A stretch of DNA of 64,000 bases, from positions 3,776,001-3,840,000 of the forward strand of contig OZ219926.1 in NCBI GenBank assembly GCA_964291405.2. Reading direction: 5' to 3'. Within the stretch, counting starts at the first letter, position 1. The number at the start of each line of letters is the position of its first letter. Below, piece by piece: positions 19,635 to 38,600 of the stretch. Source of the stretch: Thermodesulfobacteriota bacterium (GTDB lineage Bacteria; Desulfobacterota; Binatia; Bin18). The translations under genes and the position numbers were made by a program. The notes under the pieces were generated by a model that made no database searches, had not been told where the DNA came from, and saw nothing but the letters and a program-made list of their open reading frames with translations.

Positions 19635-19668
19635 ATCGGGATAGGGCCGTTTTTCTGTGGCTGCTCGT

Positions 19669-20235
19669 ATGTCACAGACCTCGACGCAGCATACATTTCT
19701 CAACGGCCGCGTTTCCGTCCTGGTGGGTGACATTACCCAACAGCGGGTCGCTGCGGTGGTGAATGCGGCCAACGCAGGCCTGCTGGGTGGCGGGGGTGTG
19801 GATGGTGCCATTCATCGGGCCGGCGGGCCGGATATTCTCGCGGCCTGTCAGGAACTGCGGCGGACTCGTTATCCTGACGGGCTGCCCACGGGCGAAGCCG
19901 TCCTCACCACAGCCGGACGCCTACCGGCCCGGCATGTGATTCATACGGTCGGGCCGGTCTATAGTGCTGCCGGAGAGCAAGCGGACGATCTTCTCTCCGC
20001 CTGTTACCGCAACTCTCTCTCGCTTGCCGTACAGCATAAGCTGACGACGCTTGCCTTCCCGGCCATCTCCACCGGCGTGTACGGCTATCCGCGTGAGGAA
20101 GCCGCGGCAGTTGCCTCGCGGGCAATTGCCGACTTCTTCGCTACCGACGCGACTATCACGGAAGTCCGTCTGGTGTTTTTTGCCCAGCAGGACGCTGACG
20201 TTTTCATGACGCACCACACATTTCCGGCTGCATAA
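19669..20235 (+). CDS. ymdB: Macro-domain O-acetyl-ADP-ribose deacetylase
   Basis: GDIT, VNAAN, GGGGVDGAIHRAGG, HTVGP, FPAISTGVYGYP. Confidence 0.9.
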   Translation: MSQTSTQHTFLNGRVSVLVGDITQQRVAAVVNAANAGLLGGGGVDGAIHRAGGPDILAACQELRRTRYPDGLPTGEAVLTTAGRLPARHVIHTVGPVYSAAGEQADDLLSACYRNSLSLAVQHKLTTLAFPAISTGVYGYPREEAAAVASRAIADFFATDATITEVRLVFFAQQDADVFMTHHTFPAA

Positions 20236-21721: not shown

Positions 21722-24022
21722 CTACGCCTCACCTGACCCGTTGGCCCCGTTTGACCCGTTGGCTCCATTGCTACGCGTGGCCCAGAAAATCCGCTCGGGA
21801 TTCATGGGCAGCTCGTACAGCCGGGTGCCGGTGGCGCGGTAGAGCGCATTGGCCAGGGCTGCGCCCGGCGGCACGATGGGCACTTCGCCGACACCGCGCA
21901 GACCGTAGGGGCCTTCGGAGGCCGGGACTTCGGTCAGGACGGTTTCGATCATGGGCAGGTCCAGCGCCACCGGACAGCGATAGTCCAGCAGGCTGGCGTT
22001 TTTCAGCTCGCCGTTATCAAAAATATATTCCTCATTCAGGGCCCAGCCGATGCCCTGCACGGCCCCTCCCTGGATCTGACCTTCAACCTGGGTTGGATTG
22101 ATAGCTTTGCCGACATCCTGGAAGCAGGTATAGCGCAGGATAGTCACTTTGCCCGTCTCCGGATCAATCTCAACATCCGCGACATGGGCGGCATAGGCGT
22201 GGGCCGGCTGCATCCGGGTGGTGCTGCCCTTGCCGATGATCGGTCCGCTGCCCCAGGCTACACTCTCGCGGGCCAACTCGGCCAGGCTGACTTCGTTCCG
22301 GGTATCACCCTTGGCCCAGAACCGTTTGGCCTGATACTCGATCTCAGCGACGGGCACCTTGAGCTTTTCCGCAGCCCGCTCTTTGAGTTGGGTCAACACA
22401 TCCTGACTGGCCTGATGGGCGGCGGCACTCATCGTGTAGGTAATCCGGCTGCCGCCGCTCAGGTCGGCAAAGGGGGCGCTGTCGGTATCACCCACTGTGA
22501 TGGTAATGTCTTGGGGGTCAAGCTGGAGTTCATCGGCCACCATTTGTGAAATCGTGGTACGGGTGCCGGTCAGGTCCACGGTGCCCACAAAAATTGAGGC
22601 GGTGGCATCCGGGTTGATCTTGACCTCGGCACTCGATGTGAAGGAGCCACCGATCCAGTAACCCAGGGCCAGTCCCCGACCGCGGTGGGGACCCTCCAGC
22701 GGCGTAGTCCAGCATGGATGCGTCTCGATCTGTTTCAGCATCTCGGTCAGGCCGATACGGTTGAGCGGCATGCCCAGGGGTAGGGTATCGCCTTCTTCGG
22801 CGGCGTTTTTCTGCCGAAACGCCAGCGGGTCGACGCCGACCTCGTCCGCCAGGGCATCCATCAGCGCTTCGACCGCAAAGGCTGCCGGCGTGCCGCCAGG
22901 GGCGCGATAGGCTTGAACGCGCGGCTTATTGGTCAGCACGTCGAACCCTTCGGCAACCATATTGTCCAGCTTATACGGAGCCAGACCCACCAGCAGGCCG
23001 CGGGCGACCGGCGAGCCGGGAAAGGCGCCGGCATCATAGCGCATGGTTGTTGTCAGTGCGGTAATCTTTCCGTCTTTTGTGGCGCCGGCTTTCACGGTGA
23101 TGACCGCGGGTGCCCCTGGGCCGGTTGCGCGCAGCACCTCTTCCCGGGAGACCACGAGTTTAACCGGCCGGCTGGTCTTTTGTGCCAGCACAATAGCGGT
23201 GGGTTCAAACAGTGCCAGGGCTTTGCCGCCAAATCCGCCTCCGATCTCCATGGGTACGACCTTGAGCTGGCTGGCGGGGAGACCGAGCAGGGTCACGAGT
23301 TGGGTGCGGACGGTGAAATGCCCCTGGGCCGAAGTCCACAACGTGACCCGGCCGTTGGGCTCGACTCGCGCCGCGCAGGCCTGGGGTTCCAGATAGCCCT
23401 GGTGGACCATCTGGGTCGTATACGTTTTCTCAATAACCGCGTCGGCCGCCGCGAACCCGGCCTCAACATCGCCCCGGGCGTAGACCATATGCGTGGAAAT
23501 ATTACTCGGCTGGTCGGACCTTTCCTGGGTCGCCTCTTCGAGCGTGTGCAGATCTTCGTGAACGAGCGGGGCGTCCGGCTGCATGGCCTGGAGTACGTCT
23601 TCCACGACCGACAGGGGTTCGTAGTCGACGTCAACCAGTCCAGCCGCTTCCTCGGCAATAAACGGGTCGGTGGCGGCCACCGCGGCTACGACCTGACCGT
23701 GATAGCGGACTTTGTCCGAGGCCATGACGATCTCGCGGATGGCGCTCATATCGATGCTGACTTCTCCCACCAGGGGGGCGGTGGCACCTTTTGGCAGGGA
23801 GGGCAGATCGTGCGCGGTAATGGCGGCTTTCACGCCGGGCAGCGCTTTGGCCCGGCTGGTATCAATATGTTTGATACGGGCGTGGGCATACGGGCTGCGG
23901 ACGAGTTTCGCCCACAGCATGCCGGGCAGATCGAGGTCGGCCCCATAGGTCGCCTTGCCCGTGACCCGCTCCGGGGCATCGACTTTGGCCAAAGACGTTC
24001 CGATTACATTATACTCAGCCAT
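21722..24022 (-). CDS. Xanthine dehydrogenase family molybdopterin-binding large subunit
   Basis: RSPYAHARI, HQGYLEP, IGGGFGGK, AYRAPG, GGSRIT, EGQIQGG..QGIG, GVGE. Confidence 0.93.
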   Translation of the reverse strand: MAEYNVIGTSLAKVDAPERVTGKATYGADLDLPGMLWAKLVRSPYAHARIKHIDTSRAKALPGVKAAITAHDLPSLPKGATAPLVGEVSIDMSAIREIVMASDKVRYHGQVVAAVAATDPFIAEEAAGLVDVDYEPLSVVEDVLQAMQPDAPLVHEDLHTLEEATQERSDQPSNISTHMVYARGDVEAGFAAADAVIEKTYTTQMVHQGYLEPQACAARVEPNGRVTLWTSAQGHFTVRTQLVTLLGLPASQLKVVPMEIGGGFGGKALALFEPTAIVLAQKTSRPVKLVVSREEVLRATGPGAPAVITVKAGATKDGKITALTTTMRYDAGAFPGSPVARGLLVGLAPYKLDNMVAEGFDVLTNKPRVQAYRAPGGTPAAFAVEALMDALADEVGVDPLAFRQKNAAEEGDTLPLGMPLNRIGLTEMLKQIETHPCWTTPLEGPHRGRGLALGYWIGGSFTSSAEVKINPDATASIFVGTVDLTGTRTTISQMVADELQLDPQDITITVGDTDSAPFADLSGGSRITYTMSAAAHQASQDVLTQLKERAAEKLKVPVAEIEYQAKRFWAKGDTRNEVSLAELARESVAWGSGPIIGKGSTTRMQPAHAYAAHVADVEIDPETGKVTILRYTCFQDVGKAINPTQVEGQIQGGAVQGIGWALNEEYIFDNGELKNASLLDYRCPVALDLPMIETVLTEVPASEGPYGLRGVGEVPIVPPGAALANALYRATGTRLYELPMNPERIFWATRSNGANGSNGANGSGEA

Positions 24023-24033
24023 GCGGTCCCTCC

Positions 24034-24510
24034 TTAGGCGGTTTGTGAAAGCGCCTGCGACGCAGCCTGAATCGCCCGAACAATTTTGTCATAGCCCGTG
24101 CAGCGGCATAGATTGCCGGAAATCGCCAAACGAATCTCCACTTCGCTCGGGTTGGGGTTGCGTTCCAATAATGCCTTGGCCGACATGATAAAGCCCGGCG
24201 TACAAAACCCGCACTGCAAACCACCGTTTTCAATAAAAGCCTGCTGCACGGGGTGGAGGTTGCCCTCAGCCGCCACCCCCTCGACCGTAGTCACGTCCGC
24301 GCCTGCCGCTTCGACCGCGAATACGAGGCAGGCATTGACGACCGCACCGTTCAGGACGACCGTACAGGCCCCGCAGTTGCCATTGCCGCAGCCTTCCTTG
24401 GGCCCCATATGGCCCAGCTTGTAGCGCAGGGTGTCCAGCAGCGTTTCGCGGGTATCGACCAGCGCGGCGTGCGGCTCGCCGTTGACGTTCAGTTCAATTG
24501 CCTGTTTCAT
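24034..24510 (-). CDS. (2Fe-2S)-binding small subunit (CoxS-like)
   Basis: KEGCGNGNCGACTV, QCGFCTPG, GNLCRCTGY. Confidence 0.95.
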   Translation of the reverse strand: MKQAIELNVNGEPHAALVDTRETLLDTLRYKLGHMGPKEGCGNGNCGACTVVLNGAVVNACLVFAVEAAGADVTTVEGVAAEGNLHPVQQAFIENGGLQCGFCTPGFIMSAKALLERNPNPSEVEIRLAISGNLCRCTGYDKIVRAIQAASQALSQTA

Positions 24511-25382
24511 GCTGCCTCCCCCCTGGCTCTCTCCAGCGCCTTGCCCAGCGTACGTCGCGTCAGCACCTTCACCAGTTCAATCCGATAGGCCGCCGAACCA
24601 CGCACGTCGGAGATCGGACTGGCGGCCCGGGACGCCAGCTCCCCAGCCTGGGAAACCGTTGTCTCATCCAAAGCCCGCCCCGTTAAAAACGCCTCGGCCT
24701 CTTTTGCACGGACGGGAATGGGCGCAACCGCGGCGAGCACGATACGGGCCTGCTCGCAGGTACGAGCGTCCGGGCTGAGCTGGACAAACGAGCCCACCCC
24801 AGCCACCGCAATGTCCATCTCTTCGCGCGGGATAAAACGCAGATAGGCCGCCCCGGAATGGGGTGGGGGAGGCGGCAGTACAATCTCGACCAGGACCTCG
24901 CCCTTTTCCAGTACGGTCTGGCCAGGCCCGACAAAAAAATCTTCTGATGGAATCTCCCGCTGTCCGCCTAGCCCGGCGATCACCAGCGTCGCGCCATACG
25001 ATACCGCCGGTGGAACGGCATCTGCGGAGGGGGCAGCGTTGCAAAAGTTGCCCCCTAACGCGGCGCGGTTCTGTATTTGATACGAGCCGATCAGGGCGCA
25101 GGCCTCGGCCAGGGCCGGGTAGTGGACACGCACCGGCTCGAACTCGGCGATCTGCGTACACGACACGGCCGCACCAATGTGGAGCCCGGCCTCGTAGGAG
25201 AGGACATTGAGCTCAGGGATTTTTTTAACGTCAACGACCAGAGCCGGGCTCCGGCGGTTCTCCTTCATTTGGGCAATAAGATCGGTTCCGCCCGCCAGGG
25301 GTCGTGCCTCACCACTTGCCTCGGCCAGCAATACCACGGCGTCTTGTAGATTCTGCGGAGCAGCGTACTCGAATGCATCCAC
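24507..25382 (-). CDS. FAD-binding medium subunit (CoxM-like)
   Basis: LAGGTDL, QIQNRA.LGGN.CNA.P.AD, PISDVRGS..YR; GTG start after GGAGGG. Confidence 0.92.
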   Translation of the reverse strand: MDAFEYAAPQNLQDAVVLLAEASGEARPLAGGTDLIAQMKENRRSPALVVDVKKIPELNVLSYEAGLHIGAAVSCTQIAEFEPVRVHYPALAEACALIGSYQIQNRAALGGNFCNAAPSADAVPPAVSYGATLVIAGLGGQREIPSEDFFVGPGQTVLEKGEVLVEIVLPPPPPHSGAAYLRFIPREEMDIAVAGVGSFVQLSPDARTCEQARIVLAAVAPIPVRAKEAEAFLTGRALDETTVSQAGELASRAASPISDVRGSAAYRIELVKVLTRRTLGKALERARGEAA

Positions 25383-25579
25383 ACTCAGACCCTCCTTCTC
25401 CTTGTTGGACACTAGTACTCCTATCCCTTGAAGTAGGAAAAGATCAAGAGAATTGTTCTGCTTCAAGTTTCCAGTAAAGAGGAACGTGTGGACAATTCGG
25501 GTCGGGCCTGATTAAGTAATCCGGCTGTGAGGGGGAGGGGCGTCTGAGTGCGAAAACCTTGCGTAAGGAGGAAAGATTC

Positions 25580-26365
25580 TTGGCAAACTGGACTGAACAG
25601 AAGGCTCATATAGCCGAAGCTGAATTAACGCTCATTAAGGGCGGATCAGGTAAACCCTTGTTAATGTTGCATGATGAGCTGGGATTCCCCGGATGGATGA
25701 AATGGAATGACGAGCTTGCGACAGAGCGCGCGTTCGTGATTCCGCTCCAGCCCGGTTTTGGCAAAACTCCGCGTCTGGGGTGGATTCGGGATTTTCGTGA
25801 CTTGGCCGGTCTGTATAGCATGGCGGTCAGAGAAATGGGGCTCGACCCGGTGGATGTCATTGCGTTCTCAGCCGGTGGATTCATTGCCGCTGAGATGGTC
25901 GCGGCCGACCCCAAGATTTTCGACCATTTGATTCTGGTAGGTCCGATGGGGCTCAAACCCGAGAAGGGCGAAATCTGGGACATCTTCCCGGTGACGATCC
26001 GGACCCATTTACGGGCAACCGTTGCCGACCCAGGGGCCGCCGAGTTCGGAAGTATTTACGGTGGCGAGATGACGCCGGAGCAATTCGAGGCGTTTGAAGA
26101 TGCCCGGGCGGAAAGCGCGCGTATCGGCTGGGAGCCGTATATGCATAATCCGAGCCTGCCCTATCTGTTGCGCGGCGTAAAAAACGTCCCCACCCTGCTG
26201 GTTCGCGGGTCCGAAGACCGGATCGTGCCAGCGGGTTGCATCGCCGCCTATATCAAAGCCATTGACGGGGCCAGGGCCGTGGAAATCGCCAATGTCGGCC
26301 ATCGTCCGGAAATCGAAAATTCGGCCGAATTTGTCAAAATCGTGCAAGACTTCCTGGCGTCGTAA
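25580..26365 (+). CDS. Alpha/beta fold hydrolase
   Basis: GSGKPLLMLH, PGFG, elbow AFSAGG, PTLL..G..D.IVP, GH.PE.E; TTG start after AAGGAGG. Confidence 0.8.
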   Translation: MANWTEQKAHIAEAELTLIKGGSGKPLLMLHDELGFPGWMKWNDELATERAFVIPLQPGFGKTPRLGWIRDFRDLAGLYSMAVREMGLDPVDVIAFSAGGFIAAEMVAADPKIFDHLILVGPMGLKPEKGEIWDIFPVTIRTHLRATVADPGAAEFGSIYGGEMTPEQFEAFEDARAESARIGWEPYMHNPSLPYLLRGVKNVPTLLVRGSEDRIVPAGCIAAYIKAIDGARAVEIANVGHRPEIENSAEFVKIVQDFLAS

Positions 26366-26401
26366 TTGCGTGGGACAAGTTCGTCCGAAGGAGAATGCCT
26401 T

Positions 26402-27736
26402 ATGCAAATCTCATATTTCACCGAACGGCCCTATCGCGGTCTGAACGAGGACGAGATACTCAAGAACAAAGCCTACTTCGCCGTGCCCAACGCCCTGTTC
26501 GACCGCGAGCAGGCGGCCAACGATTACAATTATTATCTGGACGAATACTGCTATGCCGAAGAGCTCGGTTTCGATGCTGTTGCGCTCAACGAGCACCACG
26601 GCAATCCCTTCTGCATGGGCAGCGTCATGAATGTCGAAGCTTCCATCCTGGCGCGGATTACCAATAAAGTCCGCATTGTTCTGATCGGCAATCCGTTGCC
26701 CGTGCTGAAGCACCCGCTACGCATGGCCGAAGAGCTGGCCGAGATTGATCTGATCTCGCGCGGTCGTCTCGTCACCGGCTGGGTACGCGGGGCGGGCAGC
26801 GAGCAGTTCTTTAATAATGCCAACCCGGCCTATAACCGGGAGATGTTCAACGAAGCTCACGACTTTATCGTGCAGGCCTGGACCAAGCCCGGTCCGTGGC
26901 GTTACGAGGGCAAGCATTTCCACTATCGACACGTCAATCCGTGGGCGCTTCCCTACCAAAAACCGCATCCGCCGATGTGGATTCCCGGTGTGTTGAGCCC
27001 GGAGACAGCCCGCTGGTGTGCGGAGCACCGCTATCCCTACCTGGGATTAGGCACGGCCTTGGGGCCAACCTGTGACCTGTGGGATTTCTACGCCGATGAA
27101 GCCGCCAAGCACGGCTATCAGGCCGGGCCGGAAAACTTTGGCTATCTGATTCCGACCTTTCTGGCCGAAACAGAAGAGAAGGCCCAGGAAATCGGCAAGA
27201 ACTTTGTGTTCGGCGGCGGCCAGAACGCCTTCTCCCGTCCCGAGCATACCCTGCCGCCGGGCTATAACTCCAAGGGCGCTATCCGTATGCTGGCCAAACA
27301 TCCAGGTGGAAGCTGGCTGGGTGTCAGCCCCGAGAAATTACGGGCTCAGTCGGACGATGGTCGGCCCGACACCACCGACTTTGATACCGTCCGTCAGAAA
27401 CTGCTCAAGGGCTACGGTAAGGCGCAGAGGAATCTCCAACTCCTCATCGGCACCCCGGAGTCCGTCCTGCCCAAAGCCAAGACTCTGTTGCGGGTGCTAC
27501 GTCCGAGCATCTTTGTCTTCTTCAATATCCAGGGGCCGGTCGGTGATGAGGAGCGTAAAACGAGCATGCGTCTGATCGCCCAGGAGTTGACTCCGCGATT
27601 GCGGGAATATGCCAAGGAAATCGATCTGGTCGATCCGTTTGAACGCACCCCAGGCTCGATGGCTTACCGCAACGGGGTGACGCGCGATCCGGTCGTGGAC
27701 CGCGAACCCCTGGCCGCGTTGGGCATGGCCGGCTAG
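26402..27736 (+). CDS. LLM class flavin-dependent oxidoreductase
   Basis: AEELGFD....NEHH, PLRMAEELA.ID.IS.GRL, PYQKPHPP.W. Confidence 0.92.
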   Translation: MQISYFTERPYRGLNEDEILKNKAYFAVPNALFDREQAANDYNYYLDEYCYAEELGFDAVALNEHHGNPFCMGSVMNVEASILARITNKVRIVLIGNPLPVLKHPLRMAEELAEIDLISRGRLVTGWVRGAGSEQFFNNANPAYNREMFNEAHDFIVQAWTKPGPWRYEGKHFHYRHVNPWALPYQKPHPPMWIPGVLSPETARWCAEHRYPYLGLGTALGPTCDLWDFYADEAAKHGYQAGPENFGYLIPTFLAETEEKAQEIGKNFVFGGGQNAFSRPEHTLPPGYNSKGAIRMLAKHPGGSWLGVSPEKLRAQSDDGRPDTTDFDTVRQKLLKGYGKAQRNLQLLIGTPESVLPKAKTLLRVLRPSIFVFFNIQGPVGDEERKTSMRLIAQELTPRLREYAKEIDLVDPFERTPGSMAYRNGVTRDPVVDREPLAALGMAG

Positions 27737-27777
27737 ATCGCACATACGGGCTGGGTGTCATTTGTGTTTGCAGGTGG

Positions 27778-27805
27778 AAAGGGTGGTCGTGAAGCCACCC
27801 TTTTT
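27778..27805 (+). terminator. Rho-independent terminator
   Basis: AAAGGGTGG-tcgtgaag-CCACCCTTTTT downstream of the LLM gene. Confidence 0.7.
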
Positions 27806-27875
27806 GCTATGCGCAGAACGGCGGTAGGATGTCCGCAGGAGAAACGTCACTCCCAGACTGAGGAGGACGCGCACG

Positions 27876-28907
27876 ATGAGTGATGCTCACGAACATGATA
27901 CCGGCGTGGCCTTTCAGCAGCGCCTGCTGACGACCGACCAGAACCGTGAACGTGAGATTCGGGTCAAGGCGATCGAAGCCCTGTTGACTGAGAAAACTCT
28001 CATTTCCAACGCATTGCTCGATGCCGTTCTGGACTCGTACGAAAACGACATCGGGCCGTTGAACGGCTGCAGGGTTGTTGCCCAGGCCTGGACGGACCCC
28101 GTCTATAAGGCCCGTCTGCTTGAGAATGGCTCCGCTGCTATAGCCGAGTTGGGCTTTGGCGGCTTGCAGGGCGAGCATCTGGTCGTGGTGGAGAACACGC
28201 CACAGACGCATAACGTGATCGTCTGCGCCTTATGCTCGTGCTACCCCTGGCCGGTCCTGGGGCTGCCGCCATTCTGGTATAAGAGCCAGTCGTATCGCTC
28301 CAGAGTCACCGGCCGGCCTCGTGAGGTGCTCCAGGAGTTTGGGCTTGAGCTGGACGAGAGTATTCAGATTCAGGTCTGGAACAGTACCTTCCAGACCCGC
28401 TATATGGTCCTGCCGGAGCGACCGGCCGGGACGGAGCAGATGACGCTCGATGAGCTTACGGCCATTGTCACGCGAGATGCGATGATCGGGGTGGCGCGGG
28501 TCGAGCCTGAGAAACAGCAGCAGCCCGGTCTGTCCCAGAGACACGTCTCTGACATGCAGGGTCCTGCCTCTCTGCCCCGACGAAGCGGCGAACTCCAGTT
28601 CCAGGACCCGTGGGAAGGCATCGCGTTTGCCCTGGGGGTCGCCCTGTGCGAACGGAGCTACTATGCCTGGGCCGAGTTTCAAGAGCGATTGATTGCCGAG
28701 ATTGCCAGTGCGGACCGGCAGCCACCTGAGATGAGACCAACCTATTATGAAAGCTGGCTGGCCGCCTTTGAAAAACTGCTCGACACAAAGAATATACTGG
28801 CTCAGAGCATAATTAACCGCCGCGTCCGCCAGATTAAACAGGGTCTCTCTCTGCGCCGCACCCGTCTTCCGTTTGGCATCAGGCCGTGGCCGGACGAGGA
28901 AGGATAG
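27876..28907 (+). CDS. nthA: Nitrile hydratase alpha subunit fused to NHase accessory/activator (beta-N-terminal-like) domain
   Basis: VA.AW.DP.YK.RLL, VVENT, VCALCSCYPWPVLGLPP.WYKS, RYMVLPERP; then in frame LPR..GEL.F..PWEG.AF, W.EF...LI..I, YYE.WL.A.E.LL. Confidence 0.88.
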   Translation: MSDAHEHDTGVAFQQRLLTTDQNREREIRVKAIEALLTEKTLISNALLDAVLDSYENDIGPLNGCRVVAQAWTDPVYKARLLENGSAAIAELGFGGLQGEHLVVVENTPQTHNVIVCALCSCYPWPVLGLPPFWYKSQSYRSRVTGRPREVLQEFGLELDESIQIQVWNSTFQTRYMVLPERPAGTEQMTLDELTAIVTRDAMIGVARVEPEKQQQPGLSQRHVSDMQGPASLPRRSGELQFQDPWEGIAFALGVALCERSYYAWAEFQERLIAEIASADRQPPEMRPTYYESWLAAFEKLLDTKNILAQSIINRRVRQIKQGLSLRRTRLPFGIRPWPDEEG

Positions 28908-28936
28908 GCCACGGACCCTGGAGGCCCATCCCCCAC

Positions 28937-29042
28937 ATCCCCTCTTGGGAGGGGTGCCGCGCCAGCGGCGGGGTGGGTTTGTTCGGCCGGGCGTGCAGGG
29001 ACAACCCACCCCGGCCTTCGGCCACCCCTCCAGGGAGGGGAT
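28937..29042. repeat. REPIN-like inverted pair of GC-rich palindromes
   Basis: ATCCCCTCTTGGGAGGGGTG..GGGGTGGGTT versus AACCCACCCC..CACCCCTCCAGGGAGGGGAT between convergent genes. Confidence 0.65.
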
Positions 29043-29046
29043 AGGA

Positions 29047-30282
29047 CTAGCCCTCCGGTGGTGGACCGGCGATAATTTTTTGGCTTTCCAAGCCCGCCAG
29101 TTCCTCTGGAGCCAGTCCTAGAACTTCCTTGAGGACAAGGTGGGTATGCTCACCGGGATGGGGAGCGCTGGGCAGGTCGGAGGGTTCCAGGTCACGGGCT
29201 TCGATCACTGGGCCAGGCACCCAGATTGAACCGAGATCAGGGTCGTCAACGTGGTGGAAGCAGGGCAGGTCTCGGGCGTGCTGTTCCGCTTCGATACTGT
29301 CCCGACACGGCTCGACCACCAGCCCGGCCTGACTCAGGGTCTTGAGCACCTCTTCCTGTGGACGGGCGGCGACCCAATCGGCAATTTGCTGTTTAATCGT
29401 ATCGACCCGCTCATAGCGGGCGTGGTCGCCGTGAATCTCGTGGCCCTGCTCGTCGAGAGCGAGGTTGCGCAGACCAGTAGCTTCGCGCAGCCGACGTAGG
29501 ACCGAATCACCAATCAGATTCAGGGTGACGAACTTCCCGTCCCGGGCGCAGTAATGGCCGTGGACAGCATCCAGCAGATTGTCGCCGATCGGTTCCCGGC
29601 CCTCGCCCGTTGTCTCGGCCTGGGCGTACCAGCCCAACTCTGCCAGGGTTTGGAAGGCAACCTGTTCCAGAGCGATCTGATAGCAGTCGCCCCGCCCGGT
29701 TTCCGCCAGGCGGCGCAGGGCGACGTGGAAGGCGTTCAGGCCGTGCAGTCCGGTGAGCATATCGAAAAACGCCACCGGAATGGTGAGCGGTCTGCCGTGC
29801 GGCTCGCCCGTAGCGTGAGCTAAGCCGGTCGCCCCCTGCATGGAATAATCGTTGGCCGCCCGCCCGTCATGTCCGCCGTCGAACTGGATTTTAATGACGG
29901 ACGGCCCGCAGTGCTCGACCAGATGAGCGTAGTCGAGCCAGGGCGCCATGCGCGGGGGCCAGTTGCTGATCAGCACATGGGTTTCTCGAATGAGATCGAG
30001 GACGAGCTGTTTGCCTGCCTCCTGGCGAAAGTCGATGGCAACCGCCTGCATGCCGCGATGCAGCATCTGCCAGGGGATGCTGACCCCCGCCCGATTCAGG
30101 GGGCCACGATCCCGGTCGGGCAGGCCGCGGCCATGGTGCGCCCCCATAATGGGCTCGACCAGAATGACGCGCACGCCGAGCCGCATCAATTCGAGCAGCA
30201 TCTTGTTTGGGGCGACAAACAGCCCAATGGCAACAACGGTAATCTCTTCGCCGTCTATGCTGTAGCGTAATTGGAAGGACAC
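29047..30282 (-). CDS. Family III (CaiB/BaiF) CoA-transferase, divergent; resembles mesaconyl-CoA C1-C4 transferase group
   Basis: VILVEP, VAIDF....G, catalytic Asp in AFFDMLTG, TG.G, AP.PGEHT..VL; GTG start with SD GAGGAGG. Confidence 0.8.
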   Translation of the reverse strand: MSFQLRYSIDGEEITVVAIGLFVAPNKMLLELMRLGVRVILVEPIMGAHHGRGLPDRDRGPLNRAGVSIPWQMLHRGMQAVAIDFRQEAGKQLVLDLIRETHVLISNWPPRMAPWLDYAHLVEHCGPSVIKIQFDGGHDGRAANDYSMQGATGLAHATGEPHGRPLTIPVAFFDMLTGLHGLNAFHVALRRLAETGRGDCYQIALEQVAFQTLAELGWYAQAETTGEGREPIGDNLLDAVHGHYCARDGKFVTLNLIGDSVLRRLREATGLRNLALDEQGHEIHGDHARYERVDTIKQQIADWVAARPQEEVLKTLSQAGLVVEPCRDSIEAEQHARDLPCFHHVDDPDLGSIWVPGPVIEARDLEPSDLPSAPHPGEHTHLVLKEVLGLAPEELAGLESQKIIAGPPPEG

Positions 30283-30504: not shown

Positions 30505-30705
30505 ATGCAAAAGCTGGTCCGGAAGAATATCTTTCTCGATCCGCAGGCACTGAAACGCGCCCAGAAGATATTGGGGAAAAAGAGCGAGTCAGAGACTATC
30601 CGGGAAGTGCTCAACCTTGTGACCTTCCATAACGAGGTCATGCGTGGCTTTGATCGGGTGGCGGGGAAAGCACCGAACTTCAGGGATATCTGGGAAGAAG
30701 ATTGA
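30505..30705 (+). CDS. Putative antitoxin (VapB-like, RHH type)
   Basis: RKNIFLD...L.RA..ILG.KS.SETIRE.L; TGATG coupling to the PIN gene. Confidence 0.7.
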   Translation: MQKLVRKNIFLDPQALKRAQKILGKKSESETIREVLNLVTFHNEVMRGFDRVAGKAPNFRDIWEED

Positions 30706-31137
30706 TGTCCGCCCTGCTATTTGACACGAGTGTGTATATTCCGATTCTGCGCGATGAAAATTTTGCGAGAGAATTTCGACCCCGTTATCTCCGGCGGGCT
30801 TCCGCTTACATACTGTAGCGCTGTCGTCATAGAAGAACTTCTCGCTGGAGTCCGAACGATCCGACATCGAAGACAGGCGGCTGCCCTGTATGAACCCTTC
30901 GAGCGGGTGCGACGAATTATTACCCCCAGTCAGCGCATATGGAAAGAAACCGGGACCATTGCCGCAACGATAGCGGACCAAGCTCCCCAGCTCCGTGATA
31001 AGCTCTCGCGTGAATTCCTGAACGATATTCTTATTGCTTTGAGTGGACGTTCTATCGGAGCAACGGTCGTCACTCGGAACGAGGGGGACTTTCGGCTCAT
31101 CCGGCAATTTCGAAAGTTCTCACTGGAGGTTATCTAA
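30705..31137 (+). pseudogene. vapC: VapC/PIN toxin, frameshifted (+1) near 30795-30798
   Basis: ATG 30705 frame reads MSALLFDTSVYIPILR... and stops at 30816-30818; the remaining PIN motifs (SAVVIEELLAG, NDILIA, VVTRNEGDF) are in the +1 frame. Confidence 0.75.
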
Positions 31138-31141
31138 ACTC

Positions 31142-31576
31142 ATGGTACCGGCCTGGAGATTACCCGGAGTACTGGTCGTAGCAGGAGCGGTCCTAGTGTG
31201 GGCCGCTCTCATCCGCGCTCAGCCCAGCGACACGCCGGCCAGCCAGTCGATTGATGCCCTTTTGGCGGCAAAGGCCCAGCGGACGCCAGCCCAGCGGAAG
31301 CTGAGTTCGCACCTGCTCGACGCATGGCGGGCGGTGCAGGATCAGTCGGCCGTGGACGCCCTGGTCACAGTAGACATCCGGGCTGACGTGACGCCAGCGG
31401 TGCTGGAACGTATACAAACCTTGGGCGGTACGGTCCTGAACAGCGTCCCCAAATACCGGGCCATCCGGGCACGCCTGCCCCTCTCCGCCCTGGAGCCGCT
31501 TGCCACGCTCGACGCCGTGCAGTTGGTCCGCCCCGCCGACCAAGCCCAGACGCACGGTCCAAGCCTGACGGATTGA
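31142..31576 (+). CDS. Secreted stand-alone subtilase propeptide-like protein
   Basis: Signal peptide ending ..IRA-Q; near-identical blocks to N-terminal prodomain of the 32667 protein (AAKAQRTPAQRKLSS, VTVDIRADVT, LGGTVLNSVP.YRAIRARLPL). Confidence 0.75.
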   Translation: MVPAWRLPGVLVVAGAVLVWAALIRAQPSDTPASQSIDALLAAKAQRTPAQRKLSSHLLDAWRAVQDQSAVDALVTVDIRADVTPAVLERIQTLGGTVLNSVPKYRAIRARLPLSALEPLATLDAVQLVRPADQAQTHGPSLTD

Positions 31577-32636: not shown

Positions 32637-32647
32637 GTGAGGGGATT

Positions 32648-32665
32648 GCAAACTGAGACACTACC
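32648..32665. repeat. Orphan right TIR of the GGTAG MITE family
   Basis: CAAACTGAGACACTACC, the same end as 32398-32414. Confidence 0.65.
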
Positions 32666-32666
32666 T

Positions 32667-35600
32667 ATGATCACCGACACAGGGCGGAGGTCTGTGGGAC
32701 CATCTTATCAGGGTGAAACAACCAGCCAGTCCGGACTCAGGAAACGGGACTATAGTGTCAGGCTCTTCAAGTCTTTGGTCGCGCTCGGCGCGGCCCTGGT
32801 GGGGGCCGACCTCAGCCATGCCCAGCCGACCGATCAGTCGATTGCGGTCATCCTGGCGGCCAAAGCCCAGCGGACCCCGGCCCAACGGAAGCTGAGTTCC
32901 CAGTTCTTGGACGCGGCCGGGAATGCCCAGCCGTCGGCCAGCGTCACTGGCCAGCAGGCACAGCCTGCATCCGTCACGGGCGTCGGCGTCACGAACGGCG
33001 TCCGGGCCGACGTGACGCCGCCGGAGCCAGTGCGTCCACGGGCTGTACAGGTCATGGACGAGCAGGTTCCAACCGCGGATGTCGAGGACGCAGCCGTCAC
33101 GGTCGATATCCGGGCCGACGTGACAGACGTCGTCCTGGCCCGCATCCGAGCTTTGGGCGGTACGGTGCTGAACAGCGTCCCACAATACCGGGCCATCCGG
33201 GCGCGGCTGCCGCTGGCCGCCTTGGAACCGCTCGCCAGGCTGGAGGCCGTCCAGTTCATCCGGCCTGCCGACCAAGCCATCACGCACCAGATGCTGTCGC
33301 GCCCAGCCGTGGCCGAGGTCGTCGTGACGGCGAAGCTCAACACCACCGAAGGCGATGTGGCCCACCAGGCGAACACAGCGCGCACGACCCACAGCGTGGA
33401 CGGCTCGGGCATCAGCATCGGCGTGCTCTCGGACGGCGTCGTCGGACTGGCCAACCAGCAGGCGACGGGCGACGTGCCGGCGCAAGTCACGGTCCTGCCC
33501 GGCCAGGAGGGCCGCCCGACTTCGTTCTGCGGCCGTCCGATCTCGGGGAACGAGGGCGTGGCGATGCTGGAGATTATCCACGATCTGGCACCGGGCGCCG
33601 AGCTGTTTTTTGCGACCGGGTTCGGGGGCGCGGCAGAAATGGCGCAGAACATCGAAGCCCTCTGCGATGCCGGTGCCGATATCATTGTTGACGATATCGG
33701 ATATCTTTTGGCGCCGGCCTTCCAGGACGGCGTCATTGCCCAGGCGGTCAGCGCGGTGGTTGCCAAGGGCTGTTACTACTTCTCGTCGGCCGGCAACGGC
33801 GGCAACCTGAACGACGGTACGTCCGGGGTGTGGGAAGGCGACTTTGCTGCGGGAACGACCCTGAACCTGAGCGGCGTCAAGACCGGGGCCGTCTACCACG
33901 AATTCTCCAGCGGCGTCACCGGAAACCAGATCGTGAAGGACAGCCCCCTCCCCATCTCCCTACAATGGGCCGATCCGATTGATGGGTCGGCCAACGACTA
34001 CGATCTGTTCCTGATCGACGCGAACAACAACGTGCTGGCCAGCTCAACCAATACGCAGGACGGGACCCAGGACCCCATCGAGTACATCGTCGGTTCGTGC
34101 TCGAACGCTTACCAGAACGCTCGCCTCGTCATTGTCAAGAATGCAGGCGCGGCGGATCGCTATCTGCGGCTCAACACGGGAGGCGCGCTGGCAATCGCTA
34201 CGGCCGGCCAGACCTTCGGCCATTCTGCCGCGCAGGATGCAATAGGCGTGGCTGCGGTCGATGCGCGGGCGGCGCGTGGCGCGGGCGGCGTTTTCAACGG
34301 CACGGAGTCGGTCGAGACGTTCAGCTCGGACGGGCCGCGACGAATGTTCTTCGAGGCCAACGGCACGCCGATCACGGCGGGGAACTTCTCGTCCACCGGT
34401 GGGCGGGAGTTGCAGAAGCCGGACCTGACCGCAGCCGACGGCGTCTCAACCTCAACGCCCGGCTTTTCGGACTTCCACGGCACCTCGGCGGCGGCACCGC
34501 ACGCCGCGGCGATTGCGGCCTTGATGCTGGAAGCGGCCGGCGGCCCGGCCAATGTCACGCAGTCCGCACTCCGCACGGCCATGACATCCGGGACCGCGGT
34601 CCTGGACATTGAGGCGACCGGCGTAGATCGTGATTCCGGTGCCGGTATCGTAATGGCGCCCGGCGCGGTCGATGCAGTCGCTGTCGCCGTGGCAGACCGC
34701 AACTTGGCGCCGACCGTGACGAGTACCCTGACCGACCGGACGTTCGCGCCGGGGGCCGACGCAGTGATGATCGACCTGGATGATATCTTCGACGATCCGA
34801 ACGACGACACCCTGACCTACACGATGCAGTTACGCCCTGAGGACCCGGCGGTGACGTTGGCTGGGTCGGTGCTGACGTTGACGCCGGCGAGCCCGAGATC
34901 CACGGTCATGGTGATGGTACGGGCGGCCGATCCCGACGGCCTGGCCAGGACGCAGAACTTCACGGTCACCGTGACCGCCGGGAACCGAGACTATGATGTC
35001 GATAACGACAACCTTATCGACGTCTCCACGCTCGCCCAACTCGACGCCATACGGTACGACCTGAACGGCGACGGCCAAGTGGATGGCACGACGTGGATGC
35101 CGTATTACAGCGCCTACCCCATGGGCGCGCTAGGGATGGGGTGTCCAGACGGGTGTGTCGGCTATGAGCTGACCACCGATCTGGACTTCGACACCGACGA
35201 CGATGGAGATATCGACTCGGACGACGATTACTGGAATGCCGGTGCCGGCTGGGACCCCATCGGCGACAGTACGACTCCGTTCGACGCCACCTTCACGGGC
35301 AACCGGCGCACCGTCAGCCACTTGTTCATCGATCGCGACGACGACGCCACCGGATTGTTCGGTGCAACCGGTTCGTCGAGTCTCATCCGCCGCCTCGGGC
35401 TCGTGGATGCCGACGTGACGGGAGCGGACTCCGTCGGCGGGCTGGTCGGAGAAGGCGCGGGCGAGATTCGCTCCAGCTACGTCACCGGTCACGTGTCGGG
35501 CGCCGATATAGTGGGCGGATTGGTCGGGCACAACCTCGGGGACGTGACCGCCAGCTATGCCAGCGTGGCCGTGACGGCTGACGCACAAGGCGGTGGGCTG

Positions 35601-38600
35601 GCCGGGGGCAATGCCCTCGATGGCCGCATCCGTGCCTGTTATGCCACGGGCCGCGTGTCGGGTGAGGACGTGGGCGGGCTGGTCGGAGCCAATGCCGGTA
35701 CCGTGGCCGCCAGCTACGCCACCGGACGGGTGCTGGGCACGGACGACGTGGGTGGGGTGGCCGGGACCGGTGATGGGGTGTTCCGCGCCAGCTACTGGGA
35801 CCGGGAGACCTCCGGGGTGCGCGTCGGCGTCGGCGCGGACGATCTGGACGACGACGGCTGGCTCGAAGCCGGGGAGTCGCGGACGCCCGGCGTCGCTGGC
35901 TGGTCCACCGCCGCCCTACAGACACCCAGGGGCTATAACGGCATCTACCGGACGTGGAATCTGGACCTGGACGACGATGCGGTGCCCGATACTCCCTGGT
36001 TCCTCCAGAGGAGCGGTTATCCGCTGCTGTCGTCCCTTGACTACGCTGCGGGAGGCTATCAACTCGGGCGCGGGACGACCTTGACGGCGACGACCTCCAT
36101 GGGGCAGGCGCAGGTGGAACTGACCTGGACCGCGCTGAATTCGAGCAATTTCTGGGTCGATGGGCCGGCCATCTTCTACACCCTGCTCCGCGACGACGGT
36201 TCCACCTTCGAGGTCCTCCTGGAAGAGAGCAGCACTCTCCAGTACACCGATACCGACGTGACCGCTGGCACGACGTACACCTATCAGGTGGTGGCGGTGG
36301 TGCAGGGCGGCGAAGCGGGGCGCAGCGCTCCGCTGGCGGTGATTGCCGGCGTCGGCAACCAGCCGCCGGGGGCGGTGGGCACGCTCGCCGGTCAGACGTT
36401 GCGCGTGGGGGGGAATGCGGTCATGGTGGACATCGCGGACGCGTTCGAGGATCCTGAGAACGATACGTTGACATACGCGGCGACGTCCTCCGCGACGGGC
36501 GTGGCCACCGTGGGCATATCAGGCACGCAGGTGACGGTCACGCCGGTCGCCACGGGTACGACGACCGTCACGGTCACGGCGACCGACACCGCGGGCTCGA
36601 ATACGAGCACGGAGCAGCGGTTCGTTGCCACGGTGTGGTCGGCGACAGCGGTTGACTACGACACGGACGATGACGGGTTGATCGAGATCACGACGCTGGC
36701 GCAGCTCGATGTGGTGCGCCACGATCTGGATGGCGACGGTACGCCCGCATCCGGTGGGGCGTCGTCGTATCGGATCGCCTTCGCCAATGCGGTCGAGGCA
36801 ATGGGCTGTGACGGTGTCGACGGCTGCATGGGCTACGAGCTGGCCGCCGATCTGGACTTTGACACCAATAGGAGCGACGCCCCGGACGCGGGCGACGACT
36901 ACTGGAATGGGGGGGACGGCTGGACGCCTATCGGGTCCGCGGTCGATGAGGCGTTTGCCGCAACCTTTGACGGCAACGGACAGACAATTGCCAATCTGTA
37001 CATCAAGGCAGACGGTGCAGTTGAGATGGACTACACGGGGTTGTTCGGCGTGGTCGGAACGCTTGGCCTCGTCCGCGGCCTTGGGTTGACGGCCGTCGAC
37101 ATCGCGGTGAGCGTGGACGACGACCAGGTCGGTGGGCTGGTCGGGGCCAACTTCGGCACCATTACCGGCTGCTACGTGGCGGGGCAGGTGATGGGCAATC
37201 ACTTCGTCGGCGGGTTGGTCGGGTGGAGCCGTGGTGTCATTGCCGCCAGCTATGCGACCGGACGCGTAACGGGCGATCTCGCGGTGGGCGGACTGGTCGG
37301 AGTGAACAACGGCGCTGTCATCGCCAGCTATGCAACGGGACGCGTCGTGGGGCGGAGCGGCATCGGTGGACTGGTCGGGTTCCTGTCCGGGGGGACGGTG
37401 GAAGCCAGCTATGCGACCGGGCGGGTGACGGGAACGGGCAATGTCGGCGGGCTGCTCGGGTCCACATCGGGGTTCTTCGGGGGCGACGTGACACACAGCT
37501 ATTGGGACACCCGCACGTCGGGTCTGACAAGCAGCGATGGGGGCCGGGGCTATGCGACCGGGTCGTTGCAGGGACCGAGCGGCTACACGGGGCTCTATGG
37601 GGCCTGGCGTGTGGACTTGGACGGGGACCGCCGTCAGGAATCTCCCTGGCATTTCGGGACATCCTCGCAGTACCCGGCGCTGGCGCTGGACGTGGACGGC
37701 AACGGGCAGGCGACATGGCAGGAGATAGGCTACCAGCTACGGGAGAGTCTGACTCTGAGGGCGTCGGGTCAGCCGACCCAGGTGTCCCTGACCTGGAACG
37801 CTGTGGATGTGAGCTATTGGACCTCGGCGCCGACAGTCCGCTACACGCTCTTTCGTACCGAGGGCACCACGACGGAAGTCGTCGAGGACATTGACGACGT
37901 GCAGTACACCGACACCAGCGTCACGACCGGGACGACGTACACGTACCAGGTCGCGGCGGTGGTATCGGGTGGTGAAGCGGTGTGGAGTGCCCCGGTGACG
38001 GTGACTGCGAGAAGGTCGGGCGGTGGCGGGGGCGGCGGCGGCGGGGGCGGCGGCGGCGGCGGGGGCGGCGGCGGCGGCGGGGGCGGCGGCGGCGGCGGGG
38101 GCGGCGGCGGGGGCGGCGGCGGGGATGGTGCCTGCACGCAGGAGGACGTGCACGGCAACAGTGCCGCACAGGCCACCGCCGCTGCGCTGGCTACTCCGAC
38201 CCTCGGGGCCATCTGTCCCGTCGCCGACGTGGATTATTTTACCGTCACCGCCCCCGACCGGGGCCTCCTGTTTGTGGATACCACTGGCGGGGTGCAAACC
38301 CGCGGAACTCTCTGGCAAGACGACATATCCTTGGCCTCTGGCCCTATGCGTAGCGGTCCGCAGGATGCCCGCCTTGGTGCCCGCGTGCAGGCGGGCACAG
38401 TCGTGATCGCTGTCCAGGGCCAAGGGGGCGCGACCGGGGACTATGACGTGGTCGTCACCTTTGTGCAGGGCTATCTGGAGAATCCCGGCCCCGACTCCTT
38501 CCAGAGCGGCGTGGGGATCCTGTCCGGTTGGGTGTGTGAAGCTGATATGGTAGAGCTTGAGTTGAACGGTGTGCCCCAGGGGGCCGCGTATGGGACCGAG

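Follow-up and report, generated by a model that had tools for sequence, protein, structure and literature searches.

A conserved natural fusion of a nitrile hydratase alpha subunit to an accessory domain in a Binatia lineage, possibly working without a conventional beta subunit

The 64,000-nucleotide stretch of Binatia DNA analysed here (the window) holds a single 343-residue open reading frame, starting at an ATG, in which a nitrile hydratase (NHase) alpha subunit is followed across a linker by a domain of the accessory type, and this arrangement is a natural, conserved fusion and no artefact. We read its product, with a probability of about 0.45, as a single-chain relative of the Co-type NHase alpha subunits that carries its accessory protein as a permanent C-terminal domain, would mature itself and would work without a conventional beta subunit; the identity of the metal, Cys oxidation, independence of beta, catalysis and the substrate are the parts of this reading that we infer. 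The features of the gene and its surroundings are given in Table 1.

Table 1. Features of the fusion gene and its neighbourhood (positions in the window)
Feature	Position	Strand	Basis
Xanthine-dehydrogenase-family Mo hydroxylase genes (large, 2Fe-2S and FAD subunits), divergent	21722..25466	-	Domain searches
Alpha/beta-hydrolase (268 aa) and luciferase-like monooxygenase, LLM (456 aa), directly upstream	25559..27736	+	Pfam/NCBIfam; recurrent pair
Terminator-like hairpin ending in a U run, 3' of the upstream LLM gene	27770..27812 (folded stretch 27765..27812)	+	Folding energy
Shine-Dalgarno-like GAGGAGG, 9 nt 5' of the ATG	27860..27866	+	Read from sequence
CDS, alpha-accessory fusion protein P0001	27876..28907	+	ORF, Pfam/NCBIfam domains, full-length fused homologs
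NHase alpha domain, residues 26-209	27951..28502	+	TIGR01323, Foldseek, closest solved sequences
Metal motif C117-A-L-C120-S121-C122-Y123	28224..28244	+	Sequence; family alignment
Asn169, the ppNHase alpha-D164 position	28380..28382	+	Alignment, offset C117 = ppNHase C112
Gln173, the ppNHase alpha-E168 position	28392..28394	+	Alignment
Linker including QQQ, residues 210-241	28503..28598	+	AF2 pLDDT, ortholog identity, dN/dS
Accessory (activator / self-subunit-swapping chaperone type) domain, residues 242-311	28599..28808	+	TIGR03889, shared insert
Gln269, position of the catalytic beta arginine (beta-R52 of ppNHase)	28680..28682	+	Alignment
REP-like pair, ~42-nt palindromic units, between convergent genes	28934..29044		Nested inverted repeat
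Family III CoA-transferase, convergent	29047..30282	-	Pfam/NCBIfam; neighbour within genus only

The original prediction had read the frame as an alpha subunit, a QQQ-containing linker and an accessory-like domain, and the profile searches bear this out: NCBIfam nitrile_alph (TIGR01323) reaches 279.9 bits (cut-off 249.85), and nitrile_acc (TIGR03889) reaches 62.8 bits (cut-off 46) over residues 242–311. Pfam places NHase_alpha (PF02979) at residues 26–207 (E 9.7e-83) and NHase_beta_N at residues 228–320 (1.4e-8), Foldseek matches the alpha domain to Co-type alpha chains (E 1e-17), and the solved sequences nearest to it in a PDB sequence search are likewise Co-type. The metal motif CALCSCY is present as first described, as are the accessory signatures PWEG.AF (here PWEGIAF) and YYESWL, and the QQQ occupies residues 214–216. 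In the AF2 monomer (mean pLDDT 71, pTM 0.59) both domains are folded, and pLDDT falls below 50 in the 126–133 loop and over residues 213–240, so that the linker, which is 27–50% identical to those of distant orthologs, is predicted to be disordered. A two-copy complex prediction of the fusion, run without controls, gave 0.00 against a mark of 0.42 and speaks neither for nor against self-association.

The C-terminal domain is of the accessory type and is not half of a beta subunit, since it shares a 7-residue insert (residues 273–279) with free accessory proteins, beta lacks this insert, and the position of the beta arginine is Gln: the fused domains and 74 free accessory proteins have the insert, all 79 beta N-terminal parts show a gap there, and the beta-R52 position is Arg in 100% of beta subunits (n = 79) and in 32% of free accessory proteins but Gln in 83% and Arg in 15% of the fused domains. 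The suggestion that this domain might itself supply the conserved beta arginines thus fails. Assignment as an NHase beta subunit was rejected on the same Gln269, on a TIGR03888 score of 29.3 bits against 152.2 that covers only model positions 10–98, and on the absence of PF02211. Two further candidates were rejected as well: the thiocyanate hydrolase gamma subunit (TIGR03887, 172.4 bits, below its cut-off of 291.45) and an NHLP-type RiPP leader peptide (TIGR03793), whose marginal score of 51.1 against 50.9 stems from homology inside a complete alpha domain with its metal site intact. A classical accessory chaperone is a small protein of its own that forms alpha-e2 and passes holo-alpha on to the apo-enzyme; here the accessory domain is fused 1:1 within one reading frame. 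A search for longer proteins found four, none of them convincing as a beta-alpha-accessory triple fusion.

An assembly or frameshift artefact, or a gene in decay, was also considered, and broken copies, frameshifted or interrupted, do exist in G017, G019, G134 (its second copy) and G206. Nonetheless, this explanation has next to no probability, and for the copy in the window it is refuted by intact copies in 38 genomes, by purifying selection and by contigs free of indels. The best 120 database matches are all 331–427 aa long and each contains both Pfam domains; of the 301 class genomes, 38 have uninterrupted full-length copies, and these 38 belong without exception to family f1 or f2 (one family and one sister genome); the two-domain matches listed from other families have a stop in every case. 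The fused alphas are monophyletic (43/43, SH-aLRT 99), and the fusion proteins have invariant residues in both domains; R222 and R235 are invariant arginines. All segments are under purifying selection, with dN/dS of 0.08 for alpha, 0.20 for the linker (within genus) and 0.16 for the accessory domain (11 orthologs, 50–55 pairs). Among contigs from independent metagenome runs, record 24 of contig X5 spans 27700–28925 with 49 substitutions and no gaps, X1 and X2 contigs cross 28485–28689 without a difference, and the sole indels listed are at 28962/28963, beyond the reading frame. The linker is therefore intact, with neither stop nor frameshift, and the homologs are not separate genes beside nthB, the two outcomes that would have told against the original prediction. 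This constraint has its bounds: the fused accessory domain (dN/dS 0.161) is under no tighter constraint than its free counterpart gene within the genus (0.165), and the fusion gene is dispensable, since it is missing or broken in 7 of the 28 genomes of the genus (one of those seven only 65% complete).

Many of the metagenome runs that contain the window DNA carry the label sponge metagenome. A link to the aeroplysinin-1 NHase of the sponge Aplysina was considered and rejected, since that enzyme is reported to be Mn-dependent, with peptides unlike known NHases (PMC3766881), and nothing ties it to the gene.

The gene stands alone, as had been proposed, between a terminator-like hairpin and a repeat. 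The hairpin folds at -23.8 kcal/mol (z -5.09; 1 of 200 shuffles equally stable), and a simple consensus terminator scan of the window does not list it. The inverted repeat downstream (fold z -4.3) has 67 further matches in its own genome and a depth of ~5000 against ~72 in the X1 metagenome contigs, a ~70-fold excess, which makes "REP pair" a fair name for it. One metatranscriptome contig (X20 record 18, 249 nt, 5 differences) spans 28746–28989; its source may be RNA or DNA, and we do not take it to show expression, because such libraries can contain DNA and contigs give neither level nor strand.

The second position of the metal claw is Thr in Co-type and Ser in Fe-type NHase alpha subunits; in the window protein it is Ala. 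The C, L, C, S, C and Y of the motif, and with them the 3-Cys/1-Ser claw, are unchanged in 121 of 121 fusion proteins, and R175 (the ppNHase R170 position) is invariant alongside the ligands C117, C120, S121 and C122. Description of the motif as a variant holds in that Ala118 is real, and needs amending in that Ala shares this position with other residues across the family (A 48, V 42, T 26 and M 5, n = 121); elsewhere this position is Thr in 80 of 80 canonical alphas, and Thr in 144 and Ser in 2 of 146 library representatives. The surroundings of the claw differ as well. The D164 position is Asn in 43 of 43 fused representatives and Asp in 80 of 80 canonical alphas, and in ppNHase the D164N change lowers kcat/KM 20-fold (PMC4420525). 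At the E168 position, whose Glu salt-bridges beta-R52 in ppNHase, the fused alphas have Q 41, E 16, K 11 and R 11% against E 80 and D 11% (91% acidic) in canonical alphas; beta-R52K alone costs ppNHase ~1300-fold (PMC4420525). The window protein thus has neither acidic second-shell residue, and R166 and the acidic residue at 147 are also lost in the fused alphas when compared with the 80 canonical ones. The fused alphas therefore depart from the canonical ones at sites linked with beta or with the metal centre, and the beta-linked second-shell residues are lost. Such altered surroundings of the active site suggest a protein that functions without the normal beta.

Is a beta subunit available to the fusion from elsewhere? 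The original claim that there is no beta gene is correct for the whole 64,000-nt window, and does not extend to the genome, where beta is found at two other complete NHase loci: a canonical beta-alpha-accessory operon, in which the alpha and accessory genes overlap and which keeps its own accessory gene, and a split-beta NHase, which has its own alpha and no accessory gene. The alphas at these two loci share only 60% and 51% identity with that of the fusion. Across the family no beta match lies within 8 kb, or up to the contig end, at any of 20 fusion loci; by contrast, a genome-contig scan placed beta within that distance at 78 of 79 canonical loci, and at locus L075 it is ~2.7 kb upstream. 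Of the 55 genomes of the family, 49 contain PF02211, and every reasonably complete fusion genome has some beta gene. The sole fusion genome without one (G297) is 84% complete in ~800 contigs, and for this reason cannot serve as proof of beta independence. The type of beta is not consistent among fusion genomes: it is canonical only in genus g19, split only in G234 and G184, and both in genus g1.

Because nearly all fusion genomes hold some beta gene, partnership in trans has to be weighed: the protein would be an alternative alpha with a built-in activator that matures itself and pairs with the canonical or split beta into a hybrid NHase of altered specificity, while the accessory domain swings aside on its flexible linker. 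The long, disordered linker and the intact first shell of the alpha domain would suit this, and engineered NHase performs best when P14K follows alpha at its C-terminus, which is how the fusion is arranged, a single chain beta-alpha-P14K being fully active at 452.5 U/mg (PMC4709657). We nevertheless think it unlikely, albeit with a real chance of being right, since the alpha partner of the beta-R52 salt bridge is not conserved, D164 is replaced in all members, beta is missing from all 20 loci and varies in type between genera, and the canonical and split operons each have an alpha of their own.

The role of Co-NHase activators is still debated, as subunit-swapping chaperones, metallochaperones or both. 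The fusion could be an inert cobalt chaperone, store or donor of holo-alpha: a covalent counterpart of the alpha-(activator)2 mediator, working for the cell's other NHases. The mediator alpha(P14K)2 contains cobalt, has zero activity and activates apo-NHase (PMC3511329; PMC4709657), the second domain is accessory-type both by HMM score and by the shared indel, and the split-beta locus has no accessory gene. This explanation is nonetheless improbable: the canonical operon retains its own accessory gene under similar selection, subunit swapping donates an enzyme's own alpha whereas the fusion alpha is distant from both resident alphas and carries the D164N change, a three-subunit NHase matures without an activator (PMC7329996), and genus g19 has the fusion and no split-beta NHase. 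It would also leave the recurrent hydrolase neighbours unexplained.

Those neighbours recur as follows: the hydrolase and LLM pair adjoins the fusion in three arrangements (g1, G025 and G266), the Mo hydroxylase trio adjoins it in 8 of 20 loci, and an Amidohydro_3 gene is at or near it in 5 of 20. In the window's genome the canonical NHase operon also has a paralogous LLM/hydrolase pair beside it, and the hydrolase and LLM pair is kept in G012 and G016, both of which lack the fusion, so the neighbours are independent of it. By their domain assignments they point to catabolism. NCBIfam gives no subfamily above cut-off for the Mo hydroxylase, LLM, hydrolase or amidohydrolase, and thus no substrate can be named. 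Between the two roles originally offered for the fusion, chaperone or beta-independent enzyme, the alpha substitutions and the gene neighbourhoods lean toward the enzyme.

If the fusion is a self-maturing, beta-independent single chain, the tethered accessory domain would hold its own alpha domain in a cobalt-accepting state, much like a free activator within an alpha-(activator)2 mediator, while two Cys ligands oxidise; it would then stay bound, capping the surface that beta normally covers. The resulting Cys-sulfinate/sulfenate metal centre could hydrate a nitrile or a related substrate, and the enzyme may act in a small catabolic module with hydrolases and oxidoreductases. In a fuller version, which we hold somewhat more tentatively, the accessory domain of this beta-less chain has become permanently structural in a Binatia lineage, and a remodelled second shell (Ala, Val or Met for Thr, Asn for D164, loss of E168, absence of the beta arginines) adapts the centre to a non-classical substrate or reaction alongside the hydrolase, LLM and Mo-hydroxylase neighbours.

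Several observations bear on the single-chain, beta-independent reading from both sides. ToyJ alpha alone is reported, in papers that cite the original work (PMC7329996, PMC11672702), to be catalytically active and fully modified, which by analogy may be counted in its favour. Holo-alpha(P14K)2, the closest biochemical analogue, contains 0.91 cobalt per complex and shows 0 U/mg NHase activity (PMC3511329, Table 2), and its inactivity counts against. So do the absence of both catalytic beta arginines, for which no replacement was found, and the cost of D164N in ppNHase, as well as the presence of beta in every reasonably complete fusion genome, the persistence of the neighbours without the fusion, the unexceptional constraint on the accessory domain and the dispensability of the gene.

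A conserved natural alpha-activator fusion is a stable 1:1 object for structure and biochemistry, with which it could be asked whether alpha is a complete enzyme without beta, and the family-wide replacements at sites of P. putida point mutants (D164N, E168Q) are a natural experiment on the second shell of an industrially important metal site. Should the fuller version be true, this would be the first natural covalently locked alpha-activator pair for structural work; were it to act just as a chaperone or as an alternative alpha, the fusion would add modestly to known gene layouts. A literature search of article texts, few of them from subscription journals, found no paper on a natural alpha-accessory fusion, and in a PDB sequence search all matches were alpha or thiocyanate hydrolase gamma chains, with no accessory protein among them.

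A comparable protein is present in databases: an annotated alpha/accessory protein of Natronomonas (P0127 cluster, 351 aa) has the same domain order, scores above cut-off with both NCBIfam models and is 43% identical to the window protein. It retains CTLCSC together with the Asp and Glu of WDSSSE, and so looks, from its residues, like a plain fusion of canonical parts. Metagenome contigs scanned with it yielded 7 loci, all ~52–58% identical and none close. The eukaryotic NHase of the Monosiga brevicollis type is also naturally fused; in it a His-rich linker connects an entire beta with alpha, and there is no activator (PMC7193024), whereas the window protein has no beta and carries its accessory partner C-terminal to alpha. 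ToyJ, the alpha of the toyocamycin NHase (Nelp et al. 2014, as related in PMC7329996 and PMC11672702), is the precedent for an alpha that modifies itself and catalyses without beta; as related there, its usual partners are two subunits derived from beta, and no accessory domain is fused to it; the window's genome has a split-beta type NHase of its own.

The engineered P. putida enzymes (BA)P14K and (BAP14K) of Xia et al. 2016 (PMC4709657) likewise tether the activator to the alpha C-terminus, an arrangement that is compatible with cobalt loading, but they are laboratory constructs that always contain beta, and the fusion is natural, beta-less and in a separate alpha clade. The closest systems by family are the mediators NhlAE and NhhAG of Rhodococcus rhodochrous J1 and alpha(P14K)2 of Pseudomonas putida NRRL-18668, which pair a Co-type alpha with a small beta-related accessory protein, and the alpha-to-accessory order of the fusion matches that of the beta-alpha-activator operons, including the one in the window's own genome. 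In those mediators, however, the chains are separate, associated 1:2, transient and catalytically inactive, whereas the fusion is a 1:1 single polypeptide with no cognate beta nearby, whose alpha has lost T118, D164 and, mostly, E168.

Profile searches confirm what had been predicted from the sequence, namely that one open reading frame holds a full nitrile hydratase (NHase) alpha subunit, a QQQ-containing linker and an accessory (activator) domain (the table lists coordinates of this and other features). Pfam places NHase_alpha at residues 26–207 (E 9.7e-83) and NHase_beta_N at residues 228–320 (E 1.4e-8); the N-terminal part passes the NCBIfam equivalog cut-off for NHase subunit alpha (279.9 bits vs. 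249.85) and residues 242–311 pass that for NHase accessory protein TIGR03889 (62.8 bits vs. 46), and the NCBIfam beta model scores just 29.3 bits against a cut-off of 152.2. The QQQ occupies residues 214–216, PWEGIAF and YYESWL are both found, and the metal motif reads as originally described. In an AF2 model (mean pLDDT 71) the predicted alpha domain matches Co- and Fe-type alpha chains in Foldseek (E 1e-17), linker residues 213–240 are predicted to be disordered, and the C-terminal domain is modelled as four helices with a weak match to the beta-chain N-terminal part and to thiocyanate hydrolase beta. The proposed flanks, a terminator and a REP pair, were also found. The upstream hairpin is absent from the output of a simple consensus terminator scan; the downstream element consists of two inverted palindromic units, each ~42 nt, and 67 matches to it lie elsewhere in the same genome (40 of 100 candidates were scored). 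Metagenome-contig depth over it is ~5000 vs. ~72 in the flanks (a ~70-fold excess), with many alternative junctions.

Coordinates of the fusion gene, its surroundings and related loci
Feature	Position	Strand	Remarks
Aldehyde:ferredoxin oxidoreductase family gene	16884-18872		AFOR_N, AFOR_C; upstream of Mo hydroxylase cluster
Macro-domain gene	19657-20235		Upstream of Mo hydroxylase cluster
Hairpin, then U run	27765-27812		5' of fusion; strong, -23.8 kcal/mol, z -5.1
Fusion CDS	27876..28907	+	Uninterrupted, 343 codons; ATG preceded by GAGGAGG, spacing 9 nt
Metal motif C-A-L-C-S-C-Y	28224-28244	+	Read from sequence
REP-like element	28934-29044		Nested inverted repeat downstream of fusion
Two adjacent small ORFs (66, 138 aa)	30505-31137		Toxin-antitoxin-like layout; no Pfam match at E 0.001
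177-aa ORF	31043-31576		Shares N-terminal segment (AKAQRTPAQRKLSS) with the 2229-aa ORF and so may be its truncated paralog
2229-aa ORF	32637-39326		Run of >30 glycines, internal repeats
Split-beta locus (L007, L002, L003)	G000:C3:1794876-1796933		Own genome; alpha 210 aa (CTLCSCY), 101-aa beta C-terminal protein
Hydrolase and monooxygenase paralogs (L130)	G000:C3:3064000-3071200		Own genome; just past canonical beta-alpha-accessory operon
Additional fusion copy (L131)	G134:C1:2099000-2112000		Alpha and accessory in different frames
Additional fusion copy (L132)	G206:C140:5000-19000		Alpha and accessory in different frames

Could the gene be an artefact, or a product of decay? The linker, which was to be confirmed in reads, is crossed without indel by contigs of public sequencing runs: record 24 of run X5 spans 27700–28925 with 49 substitutions and 0 gaps, contigs of X1 and X2 over 28485–28689 have 0 differences from the window, and the indels listed in run contigs fall solely within the REP element. 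A search of a 5.8-billion-protein collection gave 7998 matches, the best 120 of which are all 331–427 aa long, carry both Pfam domains and are 59–95% identical. Among 301 genomes of the class (G218 and G222, both unpublished, contribute to this denominator alone), 38 have an uninterrupted match over both domains; 37 of these belong to family f1 (own genus g1 and genera g18–g22) and the remaining one, G025, to sister family f2. The two-domain-spanning matches listed from other families all contain a stop and so represent separate alpha and accessory genes. Within the own genus the copy is intact in 21 of the 28 genomes seen and broken in G017 and G019, and no full-length match was found in G003, G009 (65% complete), G012, G016 or G020. 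Across 11 orthologs of this genus (50–55 pairs per segment), the Nei–Gojobori dN/dS of alpha is 0.084, that of the linker 0.195 and that of the accessory domain 0.161, and the tail has 0.200. The fusion is no artefact, and artefact or decay taken together is a very improbable explanation; we regard it as a genuine, naturally occurring variant of a system already known. The out-of-frame additional copies are frameshifts or assembly errors. Twenty public runs (16 studies) contain the interval 27700–29100, and many of them are annotated as sponge, coral or marine metagenome; one contig from a sponge metagenome has the complete gene at ~96% identity.

To identify the second domain, we aligned three sets: 121 fused domains, 74 free accessory proteins and 79 N-terminal parts of beta, the latter two drawn from canonical operons in named genomes. 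A 7-residue insert (273–279) is common to fused domains and free accessory proteins, and each of the 79 beta sequences has a gap there. Where beta has its catalytic arginine, R is present in 100% of beta sequences, in 32% of free accessory proteins and in 15% of fused domains, 83% of which have Q instead. The second domain is thus of activator type rather than half of a beta subunit, and the conserved beta arginine is not supplied by it. Some positions vary far less in the fused than in the free set, such as C258 (99% vs. 13%), G248 (100% vs. 12%) and S237 (100% vs. <14%); within-genus dN/dS is equal for the free gene (0.165) and the fused domain.

When a thinned set of 43 fused alphas is put in a tree with 79 canonical alphas and the two resident alphas, the fused alphas form a single clade (SH-aLRT 99), whose weakly supported sister is a canonical alpha of another Binatia genome. 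Compared with 80 canonical alphas, the fused clade has A (37%), V (32%), T (25%) or M (4%) at position 118 where the canonical residue is T (100%), N (100%) for D (100%) at 169, Q (41%), E (16%), K (11%) or R (11%) for E (80%) or D (11%) at 173, L, Q, F or K for R (86%) at 166, and N, K, R or Q for D or E (100%) at 147; at position 133, variable in canonical alphas, it has F (100%). In a wider check of 149 library representatives at 50% identity, the 146 that align at position 118 have T (144) or S (2) and none has A, V or M; four of 133 have N at 169, two of these being fragments of the fusion family. Setting C117 equal to alpha-C112 of Pseudomonas putida NHase (ppNHase) makes 169 alpha-D164 and 173 alpha-E168. 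According to the relevant part of PMC4420525, alpha-D164 reaches alpha-C112 via water and D164N loses 20-fold in kcat/KM, alpha-E168 salt-bridges beta-R52, and beta-R52K costs about 1300-fold. The fused clade has thus lost both the alpha partner of beta-R52 and the arginine on its own beta-like domain, a pattern we would expect without a bound canonical beta.

The claim that no beta gene is present holds for the window but not for the genome, since beta genes lie at two other loci. The own genome has three alpha genes, in a canonical operon (219-aa beta, 233-aa alpha with CTLCSCY, 131-aa accessory protein; alpha and accessory genes overlap), at the split-beta locus and in the fusion. At the split-beta locus an SDR gene is inserted between the beta halves, the beta N-terminal gene lies further up, and no accessory gene was seen. 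Homologs are fused and do not sit as separate genes beside beta: at 20 of 20 fusion loci (six genera and G025, checked out to 8 kb or as far as the contig reaches) alpha, accessory and beta queries matched only the fusion ORF itself. Canonical loci from named genomes have beta in 78 of 79 cases, adjacent in 77 and ~2.7 kb upstream in one (L075). Of the family's 55 genomes, 49 have the beta C-terminal domain PF02211, and the fusion might therefore serve as an alternative alpha and borrow its beta in trans. It is tracked by no single beta type: it accompanies canonical and split beta in g1, canonical beta only in g19 and split beta only in G234 and G184. No beta was detected in G297, a genome just 84% complete, and no good-quality genome among those surveyed proves beta absence alongside the fusion. 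With the beta-R52 contact apparently lost from the fused alpha, we consider such borrowing rather unlikely.

In the own genus the genes are arranged as follows: divergent Mo hydroxylase genes (large, small and FAD subunits), alpha/beta-hydrolase, luciferase-like monooxygenase (LLM), terminator, fusion and a convergent CoA-transferase. G025 has the fusion, the hydrolase and the LLM in that order on a single strand, in G266 the hydrolase/LLM pair is close to the fusion on the opposite strand, and in g19, too, the Mo trio diverges from it. At five of 20 loci (g18, g19 [L107] and g22) the fusion has a 560-aa Amidohydro_3 gene after it or nearby. The hydrolase/LLM module is separable from the fusion, being kept in G012 and G016 where the fusion is absent. 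The paralogs at L130 are 45% (LLM) and 35% (hydrolase) identical to the fusion's upstream neighbours. These links favour a metabolic role, and they do not name a substrate. The LLM family has 4–7 copies per genome, the L130 region also has an Abhydrolase_3 esterase and an HbpS-like gene, and the out-of-frame copy in G206 also adjoins Mo hydroxylase genes.

Our preferred reading, held tentatively (probability about 0.45), is a beta-independent, self-maturing single-chain enzyme. Of the ppNHase complex of alpha with its activator P14K, Table 2 of PMC3511329 records that holo-alpha(P14K)2 has cobalt present and an activity of 0 U/mg, as would a covalent chaperone or donor of cobalt that is itself inert; the neighbourhoods favour a metabolic role, and we judge this alternative unlikely. 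As described in part of PMC4709657, full activity is seen in a single chain engineered from beta, alpha and P14K, and the best placement of P14K is at the C-terminus of alpha. ToyJ, the alpha subunit of toyocamycin nitrile hydratase, is reported active and fully modified alone (as cited in passages of PMC7329996 and PMC11672702). The sole natural fusion named in the portion we used of a 2020 review of NHase gene orders is the eukaryotic beta-alpha form (PMC7193024), and no natural alpha-accessory fusion is described in the main texts of the literature searched. Haloarchaea of the genus Natronomonas have an independent second alpha-accessory fusion (P0127/P0275 cluster, 351 aa; IMG name 'alpha subunit/accessory protein'), 43% identical to that of the window, which, unlike the Binatia fusion, retains CTLCSC together with the D and E of canonical alphas.
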